From NCBI GenBank assembly GCA_002269645.1, contig NIVC01002627.1, positions 1-64,000 of the forward strand: a stretch of 64,000 bases of DNA, read 5' to 3'. The translations under genes and the position numbers were made by a program. The notes beneath the pieces were generated by a model. The model worked only from the letters and a program-made list of their open reading frames with translations. It did no database searches and was not told the DNA's origin. The DNA comes from Macrostomum lignano. Taxonomy: Eukaryota. Positions 1 to 8,805 of the stretch are shown piece after piece (position 1 is the first letter of the stretch; each line of letters opens with the position of its first letter).

Positions 1-1026
1 GAACATACAGAGAAACTAACACAGAATCTAAACAACAAACACGTTACAAAATCATTACAAACTGCTTCAGTATTTTATCTCACTTGTTGCAGGGTCACCA
101 AAGTTCACAGGGCTCTTACATTTACAGAGGAAGCGTGATGAAACCCTACATTGATAAGAACACCCAGTTTAGGACCAAAGCAACCAACGACTTTGACAAG
201 AACCTCTTTAAGTTGGCCAACAACTCTGTCTATGGCAAGAACTCTTGAGAATGAGCGGAAAAAGAACAAACCTGAAACTTGTTACCTCATCAGAGCCTGA
301 TGTTATTCAGGCAAATATGTCAAAGCCAACATTCAAAGAACTCCATATCTTTAATAGCTACTTAGGTGTGATCATATTTTACAAAACCAAGGTGACGCTG
401 CGCAAGCCGATCTATACAGGTGTCACTGTTCTCGACGAATCAAAACGTCTGATGTACCAATTCTTCTATGGCATGAAGCAGCAGTACAAGGATAAAATGA
501 AACTCTTGTACACTGACACAGACAGTTTTATTATGGACATTCAAACAGAAGACATTTATCAGGACATGCTGCAGCAAAAAGAGTTGTTTGACTTGTCTGA
601 GTATGACGAATCTTGCAGGACGCTGAATGGTGATCAAGTGTTTGACGCCACTAACAAGAAAGTGATTGGGAAAATGAAGGACGAGATTGCTGGTGATATA
701 ATCACTGAATTCATTGGGTTGAGAGCAAAGTCCTATTTTATAAAATGTGAGTCGTCAGACCCAATCAAAAAATCAAAGGAATTCCGAAACGTGTAGTTAG
801 GAAGGAAATTAATGAAGCTGAATACAGAGACGCCTTGAATTGCAACAAAAAGACATCACATGAGTTCTCAAAGCTACAATCTAAAAACCATATTATTCAC
901 ACAATTCAGCAAAAGAAGATTGGACTGTCAGGTGCAGATAACAAGAGATTCATTTTTGATGACAATATCAACAGTCTACCGTTCGGGCATTGGAGGTTAG
1001 GTTTAGGAGGTGGATATTGGGTTTAG
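1..1026 (+). CDS. polB: Protein-primed DNA polymerase B, C-terminal part, with about 7 single-base frameshifts
   Basis: Stitched frames give EKLTQNLNNK..HYKLLQYFISL(G)CRVTKVHRALTF..(W)MKPYIDKNT..FDKNLFKLANNSVYGK (motif B), YTDTDS (motif C), GKMKDE..EFIGLRAKSY and a C-terminal KIGLSGADNKRF..SLPFGHW. These are typical of Maverick pPolB. Confidence 0.95.
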
Positions 1027-1060
1027 GTTTGAAGAGAAAGTTTAATAAACCTCATAAAAA

Positions 1061-1450
1061 ATGACGACAAATAACTTTCTTGAAGATTTGGCTAACGAAC
1101 TGGAAATCCCAAACTTTAGAGGAATATTTATGAGGGACACTCTGCCTGATTTTCCTCTAAGAAAGAATGCGGCATCATGAACTTTGACACCACCGATAAG
1201 CCAGGATCTCATTGGGTTTGCTGGGTGATTGATCCCGATCGCAAGCACAAGTGTTATTACTTCGATAGCTATGGGACGGCAGTACCAGAAGAGCTAAGAA
1301 ATTATATGAAGGGAAAAATAATAAAAAAATTTATCGCTCAGACTTTATTCTCCAAGGTCTTAGCAGTGATATTTGCGGTGAGCTGTGCATGACTGTTTTG
1401 TATGCAATGACCAAAACACGAAAGACCTACAAGGAAATTATTCTACTGTG
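1061..1450 (+). CDS. Adenain-like (adenovirus-type) cysteine protease, at least 2 frameshifts; end approximate
   Basis: ATG at 1061: MTTNNFLEDLANELEIPNFRGIFMRDTLP / ECGIMNFDTTDKPGSHWVCW..YYFDSYG / YRSDFILQGLSSDICGELCM. His (SHW), Asp (FDS), Gln and Cys (Q..S..CG) catalytic motifs are present in the right order. Confidence 0.88.
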
Positions 1451-2168
1451 TTTCATAGGGTTCATTGTGGTTATCTCGTTGTCTTCTCGTTTCTTCCTTC
1501 TTTCCATAATGTTGAAGAACTTTCTCGAGTTCATTTCTCAGCTGACTCATGTCATCAGTACCGACCATGTTCAAGTTCATTCGAATTGATTGTTCATAAA
1601 GATCCTGAATGGTTTTGAACTCATCCTCTGAAATGAACTTATCCTCGATTGCCCTTGAAATGTACCCTATGATTGATGTGTGCACCCCTTTCTTTTTACT
1701 TGCTTCTCCTGTAGCTGCTTTAGTTTTTTTCGCCTGTTTCGCGCTAATGCTCCAGTAATTGCTGAAATAAGTCCACATGCAGCACCCACGAGCCGAGCGG
1801 ATTGCGATTGGGGCTGTGATGACTGGCAAACTGAGACAGCTGCAGCAGATCCAGATAGAACAGACACAGATCCTAGAATCATATTGCTGTAGTCGAAAAA
1901 TTTACAGTGGTTGTCATAGCGCTTAATTTTCTTTGTGTTGTGGAAAATATTTTTTTCAAGATCATCTCGCATTTTTTGAATCTCCACCAGTCGAAACTGC
2001 TGAGAGTTACAAGTAATGACGGGGTAGAGTTTTTGTTGCTCATATTGGGTGCATTCAGATTCGGTGCCAGGCTTTGTGTGTTCGAATTCGGTGCCATTGG
2101 TTTGGTGCTGTCGGTATTTTAGGTTCAACGTATTGAGACTGATCGTATAGAGAATTTTGTTGGGCCAT
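1443..2168 (-). CDS. Conserved Maverick membrane-hairpin protein (probably the 'gasderminX'-type ORF), at least 3 frameshifts
   Basis: Stitched: LYPVI..QQFRLVEIQKMRDDLEKNI..KKIKRY..FDYSNMILGSVSVLSGSAAAVS / LPVITAPIAI / LVGAACGLISAITGALARNRRKKLKQ / IIGYISRAIEDKFISEDEFKTI. This has two Gly/Ala-rich hydrophobic helices followed by a basic patch. ATG at 2168 follows an A-run. The family name is from recall. Confidence 0.7.
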
Positions 2169-2259
2169 TTTTTTCTCTAGAAAAAATAAAAAAAATTATA
2201 AAACTACCGGTTGAAAGATCTGTTTTCTTTTTGATAATTCCATCTGCACCGCCGGTTGT

Positions 2260-7096: not shown

Positions 7097-7960
7097 ATGG
7101 AAGCGATTGCTGAAAGACTAAATAATATTGTTTCTCACTCTAAGGAGAGCATTCCTATTACAATAACTGGGCGAATTAATGACTCAAACGGGATATTTGT
7201 TGAAAAATTAGAGCAGGCGATTCGCCTGGATCCAGGTGCTAATTACCATGTCTATCTTAACGACTTCACCGGTTGGTCAAACGTTCCTAATGTGATGGCA
7301 GCAAATAATAAGTTTTATTACAAATGGAAAGGTGCAGCAGCAGACCCTGTGGTATTTCATGTGAGCACGCAAAGTGTGGATACCTACAATAACTTTCTAG
7401 AAAATGTCTTTACTAAGAGAGGCCATTTTGAGACACCTGATGCGAGTAAGCCAGAGAAGAAACTGTTCCCTGTCAAACTAACCTATGATCTCACTGTAAT
7501 GAGAGTGGTCATGCAAGTTCACAAAAATGCGGAGGTTGAGTTTAAAGATGACACTTGGTATAGGGAACTAGGATTCGAGAAGAAAGTTTATAAGGCAGAA
7601 TCCGCAGCGCAGACCGCCACTCAAGCATCGGGGACTGTTAGAATGGTCCGGGAAAGTGTAAGCGGTTTGTTCTTAGCACCCAATATTGCAGACATTGTAA
7701 AGGGTTTGAATATTCTAATCAGAAGCAATCTCAGTCTTGATTGGGTATTTAAGGGAAAGCGAACGAATATTTTGTACAACATCTCCAACTCTGTTGCTGG
7801 AGGACAGATGGTGGTAGAGAAACCAAATCCAGTGAAAAGAGTTGTATTGAGTAATAAAGAGATTCACGAGATTGTGCTACAGTTTGAGACTGAAGATGGG
7901 ATGGGCGTTGATTTTAATGGGGAAGAGTTTGTATTGACGTTGATCATTGAAAGAATGTAA
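7097..7960 (+). CDS. Minor capsid protein (penton, single jelly-roll)
   Basis: Intact 287 aa: IRLDPGANYHVYL..WSNVPNV..NNKFYY, ILIRSNL..GKRTNILYNI...GQMVVEKPNPV, IHEIVLQFETEDGMGVDFNGEEFVLTLII. This is a typical Maverick penton C-terminus. Confidence 0.88.
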   Translation: MEAIAERLNNIVSHSKESIPITITGRINDSNGIFVEKLEQAIRLDPGANYHVYLNDFTGWSNVPNVMAANNKFYYKWKGAAADPVVFHVSTQSVDTYNNFLENVFTKRGHFETPDASKPEKKLFPVKLTYDLTVMRVVMQVHKNAEVEFKDDTWYRELGFEKKVYKAESAAQTATQASGTVRMVRESVSGLFLAPNIADIVKGLNILIRSNLSLDWVFKGKRTNILYNISNSVAGGQMVVEKPNPVKRVVLSNKEIHEIVLQFETEDGMGVDFNGEEFVLTLIIERM

Positions 7961-7964
7961 GAAA

Positions 7965-8204
7965 TCACAATTGTCTAATGATTTCTACAAAGTTATAGTA
8001 GCTGTCGTAATCTTTTACATAGGTTACTCCATACTTATGAAACCAGTGTCTTTGGAGAGCTAGATTAATATTAGGGACATTGATATCAACGTCGGGCCAA
8101 TATTTTCTCATGTACTCGCTGCATTCTAGTTTGCATCGGTACTTACTCTTGTAATTAGGCTCGTGCGCTTTGTAATAAGAACCTGGAGAGACAACTGGAA
8201 ACAT
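7965..8204 (-). CDS. Small aromatic-rich orphan viral ORF (79 aa)
   Basis: ATG follows an A-run as in the other viral genes. Its stop is 4 bp from the convergent penton stop, and the composition is not low-complexity. Confidence 0.55.
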   Translation of the reverse strand: MFPVVSPGSYYKAHEPNYKSKYRCKLECSEYMRKYWPDVDINVPNINLALQRHWFHKYGVTYVKDYDSYYNFVEIIRQL

Positions 8205-8359
8205 TTTTAGAGAAAATTTAATTTTTTTTTCAAAGGGTAAGGACCCTGGGTTAGGGGATTTAAAGTCTTAGGGATCTGGTAGCACGTTGCGGATTGAATG
8301 TGTGGAGAAGAATACAGATTGTTTTCTGATTGTTTCGAAGATGCTATGGGTGGATGTCA

Positions 8360-8805
8360 GTGGATTATGTAGGACACCTGCTATGCTCTGATTCTGTCGT
8401 GGAGGAAGGAGGATAGGTTAGGAGGATTATGTTCGAAGTTTTGTAAGCGAGTGCGACACCTGTTATGCTCTGATTCAGGGATAATATGGATGGATTTAAT
8501 TGGATTATGTTCGAAGTTTTCGGAGCAACTAGGACACCTGTTATGCTCTGATTCTGTCAGGGATAATATGGATGGATTTAATAGGATTATGGAGGATGTT
8601 TTGTGAGCGAGTGCGACCCCCCTTTTTTTCTGATTCTGTCGGGGATAATATGGATGGATTTAGGTGGATTATGAAGGACGTTTTGTTAGCGAGTGCGACC
8701 CCCCTTTTTTTCTGATTCTGTCAGGGATAATATAGATGGATTTAATGGGATTATGGAGGACGTGAAAAATTTTGTCCCAAAAGCCCCCTCATGCCTTCTA
8801 CTCCT
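8360..8805. repeat. Subterminal region of the element: ~78-bp imperfect repeat x 5-6, probable right TIR
   Basis: Recurring ..CTGATTCTGTCAGGGATAATATGGATGGATTTA..GGATTATG.. and GCGAGTGCGAC(A/C)CC. TIR status cannot be confirmed without the left end. Confidence 0.6.

Follow-up and report, generated by a model that had tools for sequence, protein, structure and literature searches.

The right half of one copy of a recently expanded Maverick/Polinton family in the genome of Macrostomum lignano

The window analysed here is a stretch of 64,000 nucleotides of Macrostomum lignano DNA located at the start of contig C2627 (NIVC01002627.1). Positions 1-8802 are the right part of an integrated copy of a Maverick/Polinton, the left side of which is cut by the contig start. 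The 764-Mb assembly was searched for sister copies. The lengths and order of the open reading frames (ORFs) announced by the original prediction were reproduced in the window. The features of the element are listed below.

1-1026, + strand: C-terminal part of the polymerase pPolB, cut by the contig start; the fragment matches PF03175 (E=1.6e-4).
1061-1458, + strand: cysteine protease, adenain/Ulp1-like; its frame gives 133 aa in open sister copies and is shifted in the window.
1443-2168, - strand: transmembrane (TM) accessory ORF, named for its hydrophobic hairpin; sister copies encode about 230-266 aa, and the frame is shifted in the window.
2260-3077, - strand: coiled-coil-like accessory ORF containing an internal duplication of 84 bp; sister copies encode about 240-270 aa, whereas the window ORF is split in two.
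3094-3894, - strand: A32/FtsK-like packaging ATPase, 266 aa, open, assigned from its PF04665 match and motifs.
3937-4113, no strand: 21-bp tandem repeat in the interval between the ATPase and the 125-aa ORF, from a repeat scan.
4156-4533, - strand: small basic 125-aa ORF containing three G-x-G motifs; sister copies encode 126 aa, and the N-terminal part is in another frame in the window.
4550-5758, - strand: 402-aa ORF, open, in three allele classes; it comprises a Gln/Pro-rich spacer and, towards the C-terminus, a helical domain that is conserved.
5789-7075, + strand: double jelly-roll major capsid protein (MCP), 428 aa, open, assigned from a structure model and PF21738.
7097-7960, + strand: single jelly-roll minor capsid protein (penton), 287 aa, open, assigned from a structure model.
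7965-8204, - strand: 79-aa ORF that overlaps the inverted repeat at its inner end; many copies have this ORF at their left end as well.
8041-8802, no strand: terminal inverted repeat of the right side, whose end reads …CCTTCTACT; an 82-bp tandem array lies inside it at 8373-8760.
8803-8808, + strand: target-site duplication CCTCGG, supported by the left junction on contig C3167 and by empty sites.

The element ends read AGTAG…CTACT. Its right end had been predicted at 8805 but is located at 8802, and 8803-8808 correspond to the target duplication. The sequence CCTCGG precedes a left terminus only once in the genome, on contig C3167. This contig carries the same insertion as the window and overlaps it over window positions 1-8655. 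Its left repeat is 98.8% identical to the right inverted repeat at 8041-8802, over 764 nt. In addition, empty-site paralogues on C374 and C2030 contain a single CCTCGG, and there the left flank seen on C3167 runs straight into the right flank of the window. Because the left junction and the two empty sites agree, CCTCGG is the duplication of the window insertion. The target-site sequence (window 8803-9300) has at least two paralogues elsewhere, at 92-96% identity.

Ten sister copies were fetched by similarity to the MCP and 20 by their paired termini. Four of the first ten that lacked one end were dropped, leaving 26. Of these, 21 are at least 14.5 kb long (14.8-21.8 kb, the longest with nested insertions) and five are internally deleted (3.6-12.5 kb). 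The target duplication is an exact 6-bp repeat in 20 of the 26 end-to-end copies, has one mismatch in three and is not found in three. According to the sister copies, the full element is linear, 15-16.5 kb long, with inverted repeats. On the left side, the element starts with the inverted repeat, which is often accompanied by the 79-aa ORF, and continues with a variable region. A phospholipase A2 (PLA2)-like ORF on the minus strand, an rve integrase, a pX-like ORF, pPolB and then the genes present in the window follow in this order. The upstream integrase was recovered in sister copies and the left repeat on C3167. The 79-aa ORF is found in 23 right-end and 14 left-end copies. All the defining features of Mavericks/Polintons (Polintoviricetes) that we tested are present: pPolB, rve integrase, 6-bp duplications, ATPase, protease, double jelly-roll MCP and penton. 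Some sister copies (L011-L012, L015-L016, L019-L020) are interrupted by insertions of 2-6 kb. Long ORFs in two of these insertions presumably belong to retrotransposons, as judged by eye.

The genes are tightly packed. The divergent starts of the 402-aa ORF and of the MCP are 30 bp apart (window 5759-5788). An A-run precedes the start of all nine genes, mostly behind a T-rich tract and sometimes an AG (including those at 1061, 2168, 3077, 3894, 4533, 7097 and 8204). These contexts are possible splice-acceptor, leader or viral promoter signals.

The two capsid proteins, first proposed from pattern only, both model as jelly-rolls. The 428-aa ORF matches PF21738 (DJR-like) in Pfam with E=2.2e-5, just under the cut-off, and this family is found in 51 of 53 aligned MCP relatives. 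A model built from these 53 sequences has a mean local confidence (pLDDT) of 90.8 and a predicted template-modelling score (pTM) of 0.89. It superimposes on the PBCV-1 capsid chain with a Z-score of 24.9 (root-mean-square deviation, rmsd, 4.5; 352 aligned residues). Further matches are the faustovirus protein (Z 23.4), Sputnik (Z 21.6) and the mavirus MCP (Z 20.2), and the first non-capsid row appears only at Z 8.3. In BFVD, the MCP matches virophage, MELD virus, adintovirus and adomavirus entries at 8-12% identity; no sequence match was found in the PDB. The penton model, built from 14 sequences, is less well defined (pLDDT 75.5, pTM 0.54). It superimposes on the mavirus penton with Z 12.8 (rmsd 6.9, 237 aligned residues), on Sputnik with Z 11.6 and on an aviadenovirus chain with Z 11.5. 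Foldseek matches of this ORF in BFVD are the MELD virus penton and virophage minor capsids. On the basis of these models, we assign the 428-aa ORF as the double jelly-roll MCP and the 287-aa ORF as the single jelly-roll penton. The closest database MCPs outside the host genome are 70-78% and 43-44% identical, so the lineage extends beyond this genome. No relative with gene context was found in IMG/VR, using the MCP alignment and PolB, or in JGI metagenomes.

The capsid folds resemble virophage proteins and thereby raise a first alternative, namely a satellite-like provirus needing a large helper DNA virus, as for endogenous virophages and some Polinton-like viruses. The packing described above, the A/T-rich start contexts and the scant space for ordinary host promoters are also compatible with such a dependence. 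However, likeness of fold is common to the whole double jelly-roll group at 8-15% identity, and no helper virus was seen, no search having been made for one. We regard helper dependence as very improbable.

The remaining genes were assigned from domains and motifs. PF03175 is found in the PolB frames of sister copies (E=1.9e-9 and 7e-16, above the cut-off, 37-58 bits), together with the motifs KLANNSVYGK and YTDTDS. By its span, pPolB has about 1270 codons, in which Pfam shows only PF03175 and a weak endonuclease VII match (sister copies). The protease matches PF00770 (E=9.6e-5, above the cut-off) and adenovirus proteinase 1avp (E=0.0016). Its His, Asp and Gln..Cys motifs are present in 9 of 9 open copies. 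Likewise, the D, D and E motifs of the integrase are found in all nine open copies. This 345-aa ORF (PF00665, E=7.5e-9) was read from sister copies, its position being beyond the left edge of the window. The ATPase matches Pox_A32 (PF04665, E=3.6e-6, above the cut-off), and its Walker A (GSSGSGKT), Walker B (LIVFDD) and RGRH motifs are kept in 11 of 11 open copies. In sister copies, the PLA2-like ORF (about 166 aa) matches PF08398 with E=3.2e-13 and the pX-like ORF (about 148 aa) matches Adeno_PX with E=1.6e-7.

The accessory ORFs are less informative. Pfam gave only sub-threshold matches for the TM ORF, and its look-alikes in the ESM Atlas, at 0.92-0.93, are nameless clusters of eukaryotes and viruses. 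It is likely a membrane-active virion protein. The 126-aa basic ORF is likely a core protein processed by the protease. No useful Pfam match was obtained for the 287-aa, 402-aa, 125-aa and 79-aa ORFs. The 402-aa ORF also had no usable match in the ESM Atlas; its residues 330-402 have three homologues, all nameless.

The family expanded recently and reached a high copy number. A 22-nt terminus has 346 exact matches in the genome, far more than chance would give, as compared to 0 for a reversed control. This corresponds to about 170 element-equivalents, a figure that is a minimum as regards mismatched ends and yet may be too high if some loci were assembled twice. Among 663 MCP candidates, the best 98, a sample biased towards intact genes, are 98-100% identical to the window protein, and 96 of these 98 have no internal stop. 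As far as analysed, the sister copies, of which well over a hundred are near-identical, are young rather than only decayed.

The capsid genes are the least broken and the most constrained. Among the 21 full-length copies, the ORF is open in 17 for penton, 13 for MCP, 12 for ATPase, 11 for integrase, 9 for protease and 0 for PolB. The ratio of non-synonymous to synonymous rates (dN/dS), calculated among open ORFs of close copies, is 0.09 for MCP (16 ORFs), 0.15 for ATPase (11), 0.16 for integrase (9), 0.20 for penton (20), 0.23 for the 402-aa ORF (14) and 0.24 for protease (9). The 79-aa ORF gives 0.25-0.30 (0.25 among 19 open ORFs of close copies) and is therefore also under purifying selection. 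Between diverged capsid alleles, the ratio falls to 0.05-0.07. Changes private to one copy were also considered. In the MCP, 12 are non-synonymous and 20 synonymous, that is a ratio of 0.16 per site; the corresponding values are 0.55 for penton and 0.29 for integrase. We infer that most differences between copies arose in replication under selection and not by decay in place.

Comparison of the copies also reveals that they are mosaics. Identity to the window is 96-100% for the PolB C-terminus (22 copies) together with the protease (21 copies), and 97-100% for the PolB C-terminus alone. The ATPase forms two classes, one of 17 copies at 95-100% identity to the window and one of 7 copies at 78-80%. 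Three classes are observed for the 402-aa ORF (6 copies at 100%, 5 at 88-91% and 11 at 66-69%). The capsid module exists as two types. Type B, with 75-82% nucleotide identity to the window, is found in 5 of 24 copies. It encodes an MCP of 431 aa, with about 83% identity to that of type A, and a penton of 285 aa, with about 80%. The MCP and penton types are fully linked (table 19,0,0,5). In contrast, the capsid type is independent of the ATPase type (table 13,4,5,1; p=1.0) and has no significant link with the class of the 402-aa ORF (p=0.27). The simplest reading of these alignments is that recombination between co-replicating lineages would have reassorted the alleles. A polishing origin is hard to accept for blocks diverged by 20-30% within copies that have matching target duplications.

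These data bear on a second alternative, in which the element is a genuine Maverick that moves only inside the cell, as a self-synthesising transposon, its capsid genes being recent relics or having an intracellular role. Neither a particle nor a free genome was observed, and the deleted copies with intact ends (3.6-12.5 kb) make mobilisation in trans without the full gene set possible. However, the constraint on the capsid genes extends even to the copy-private changes, and the alleles of MCP and penton remain linked in spite of the reassortment of other genes. A purely intracellular life appears improbable.

As assembled, many reading frames of the family are broken. In the window, the original prediction stands for the jelly-roll capsids, for the Maverick gene set and for the uninterrupted ATPase, 402-aa, MCP and penton ORFs. 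By contrast, pPolB, the protease and three accessory ORFs (TM, coiled-coil and 125-aa) are frameshifted relative to sister copies, so that the virion-morphogenesis module lacks an unbroken protease as assembled. The window PolB has four frameshifts, none of them common to other copies. A programmed PolB frameshift common to all copies was considered and rejected: the breaks are scattered, and the natural frames of 1059 and 679 aa overlap. A site apparently shared by 19 of 20 copies was an alignment artefact.

The breaks raise a third alternative, a dead family that invaded recently and left many young copies, all of which are now replication-defective. Besides the lack of an unbroken PolB among the 21 full-length copies, vertebrate genomes with about 170-290 copies, all PolB-defective, have been reported (PMC8097293). 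The character of the breaks argues against decay. Of 215 frameshift events, 174 are deletions and 173 involve 1 nt, as in consensus errors, and nonsense codons are rare; a 1.5-kb PolB slice from 22 copies contains 34 private frameshifts and 2 private stops. The frameshift load is related neither to the substitution load (rho -0.20, p=0.37) nor to relatedness (permutation p=0.21). In addition, stop-free PolB frames do occur. Finally, the two assemblies of the window insertion can be compared over 1-8655. They differ by 51 substitutions and by 45 indels of 1-2 nt in 8.7 kb, 27 absent in the window and 18 absent in C3167, and most of the window frameshift indels are absent from C3167. In view of these 45 private short indels in two versions of one insertion, many of the frame breaks are probably assembly errors.

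Three observations qualify this explanation. Homopolymer enrichment is modest, with 33% of events in runs of at least 3 as compared to a background of about 20%. The copies on C2627 and C3167 could be alleles. Moreover, private frameshifts in PolB are 3.4-3.8 times denser per kb than in the capsid and ATPase genes (p=3e-5, copies chosen by termini), as a dead family would predict; uniform error is therefore not a sufficient explanation. At similar substitution density, private frameshifts in PolB, protease and pX are 3-4 times denser than in the integrase, ATPase and capsid genes. Overall, we consider a family without any replicating member unlikely, though less so than the two alternatives discussed above.

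Our preferred interpretation is that the window holds the right half of a recently expanded, adintovirus-like Maverick/Polinton copy, whose family is likely propagated as a DNA virus that integrates and also passes through particles; we have good, though incomplete, confidence in it. An excised or incoming genome would be copied by protein-primed replication from its termini. The ATPase would package it into a capsid made of the 428-aa and 287-aa proteins, and the protease would mature the core proteins, namely the pX-like protein, the 126-aa protein and perhaps the 402-aa ORF product. Entry through the membrane would be aided by PLA2 and the TM protein, and the integrase would insert the genome via a 6-bp staggered cut. 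Co-replicating genomes would recombine and complement one another in trans, and for that reason alleles would be freely reassorted and deleted copies would last. A more ambitious version of this interpretation is possible, but we hold it only tentatively. In it, the Maverick population would be actively reinfecting. Recombination on a shared replication and terminus backbone would involve two or more capsid types, two packaging ATPases and three forms of the 402-aa protein, defective copies would be complemented, and the germline would be re-entered through virions that could be purified.

Several points weigh against a family spreading by particles. The assembled contigs of public runs revealed neither virions nor a free linear genome, and no transcript could be confirmed in them. 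The six core ORFs are never all open in the same full-length copy (0/21, PolB being broken in each), and a stop-free PolB frame of about 1268-1295 codons was found in only 2 of 54 scored candidates genome-wide. The copy number is maybe inflated, the window insertion itself being assembled on two contigs (C2627 and C3167). The dN/dS values derive from open ORFs only, broken ones being left out, and from non-independent pairs. Moreover, selection on capsid genes reflects past need and is no proof of present particle production. Part of the fine-scale mosaic could also result from polishing with reads from other copies.

As for expression, 14 public runs, whose RNA status is guessed and in which DNA is possibly present, contained 0.49-0.65 of the sequence words. 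In contigs of three of these runs, read with the same reservation, all 30 bins of 5100-8250 are covered. Variant letters shared by run contigs were considered as expression of a rare copy. This was rejected, since they represent the allele most copies have: 12 of the 20 copies of type A and all 5 of type B. Among the loose contig ends listed, which do not include 282 others, none pointed to spliced-leader or splice-acceptor use at the T-rich/A-run starts, the records being cut at 5749-5787. A deletion variant in which 1124 nt of the MCP and of the penton start are skipped (window 6114-7239) was seen in contigs of two public runs, one of them DNA-like.

The gene set is ordinary for Mavericks. 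Alpha adintoviruses (Starrett et al. 2021, PMC8502044) also have a pfam03175-type PolB, an rve integrase, an FtsK-type ATPase, adenain, a hexon-like MCP, a penton and inverted repeats. Adintoviruses join such core genes with PLA2/pX accessory genes, and the parvovirus-type PLA2 and adenovirus pX-like sequences are tied there to Alpha virion modules (PMC8502044). In contrast with the PLA2X of Alpha adintoviruses, the PLA2-like and pX-like sequences are here separate ORFs flanking the integrase, and Pfam finds no pX in the PLA2 ORF. Structural matches of the window proteins to adintovirus and MELD entries are only 8-14% identical. According to PMC11161782, polinton pPolB includes a vOTU protease in addition to its terminal-protein domain.

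The present family has several traits in common with vertebrate Mavericks (Barreat and Katzourakis 2021, PMC8097293): core ORFs without introns, inverted repeats, target duplications of 6 bp, capsid genes under purifying selection and frequent PolB-defective copies. Intact capsid modules under purifying selection are thus already published for animal Mavericks. The gene order differs: in the present element, the ATPase is on the strand opposite to PolB and MCP, and the integrase is beside PolB. As to copy number, the family ranks with the highest vertebrate values, the median being 8 and the richest of the named genomes reaching 172-287 (PMC8097293). Coral polintoviruses (PMC11131425) are likewise multi-copy and endogenous in an invertebrate, and their hallmark genes were reported as expressed in corals. 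A large Maverick expansion with multi-copy endogenous elements is described in Dugesia planarians (bioRxiv 10.64898/2025.12.11.693146). Within-genome reassortment of diverged capsid, ATPase and accessory alleles on a shared backbone was not found in the accessible text of the coral and Dugesia accounts, and "recombination" and "mosaic" occur 0 times in the coral paper. Flatworm names are absent from the searched part of the supplement of the adintovirus paper. Full-text searches on Mavericks/Polintons and flatworms, and on mosaicism and selection, gave no description of the present family; Repbase and subscription papers lie outside their scope.

Whether animal Mavericks make particles is a long-standing question. 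According to PMC8097293, such particles have not been observed, and the co-purification of adintovirus DNA that has been reported is indirect only (PMC8502044). What makes the present family interesting is the evidence for selection and mosaicism, and that it is well suited to a search for particles. With ends for about 170 element-equivalents, near-identical open capsid genes and strong selection, it is a favourable place to seek natural virions. It also shows recombination among endogenous DNA viruses inside one genome.

A second, distant Maverick-like family is located at L075-L076 (G000:C2696:31300-39700). Its double jelly-roll MCP has 454 aa and is 21% identical to that of the window family. 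This MCP shares a single strand with integrase-like, ATPase and penton-like ORFs, and the gene order is different. The PF21738 scan shows many near-identical copies of this family.

The rest of the window, from 9400 to 64000, is host DNA in which long minisatellite arrays (82 Tandem Repeats Finder rows) lie amid exon-like ORFs. The latter presumably resemble SAPS/PP6 regulatory, SIL1, LIX1, SRP19 and two-RRM proteins. A fragment at 31147-31605 is presumably mariner-like.

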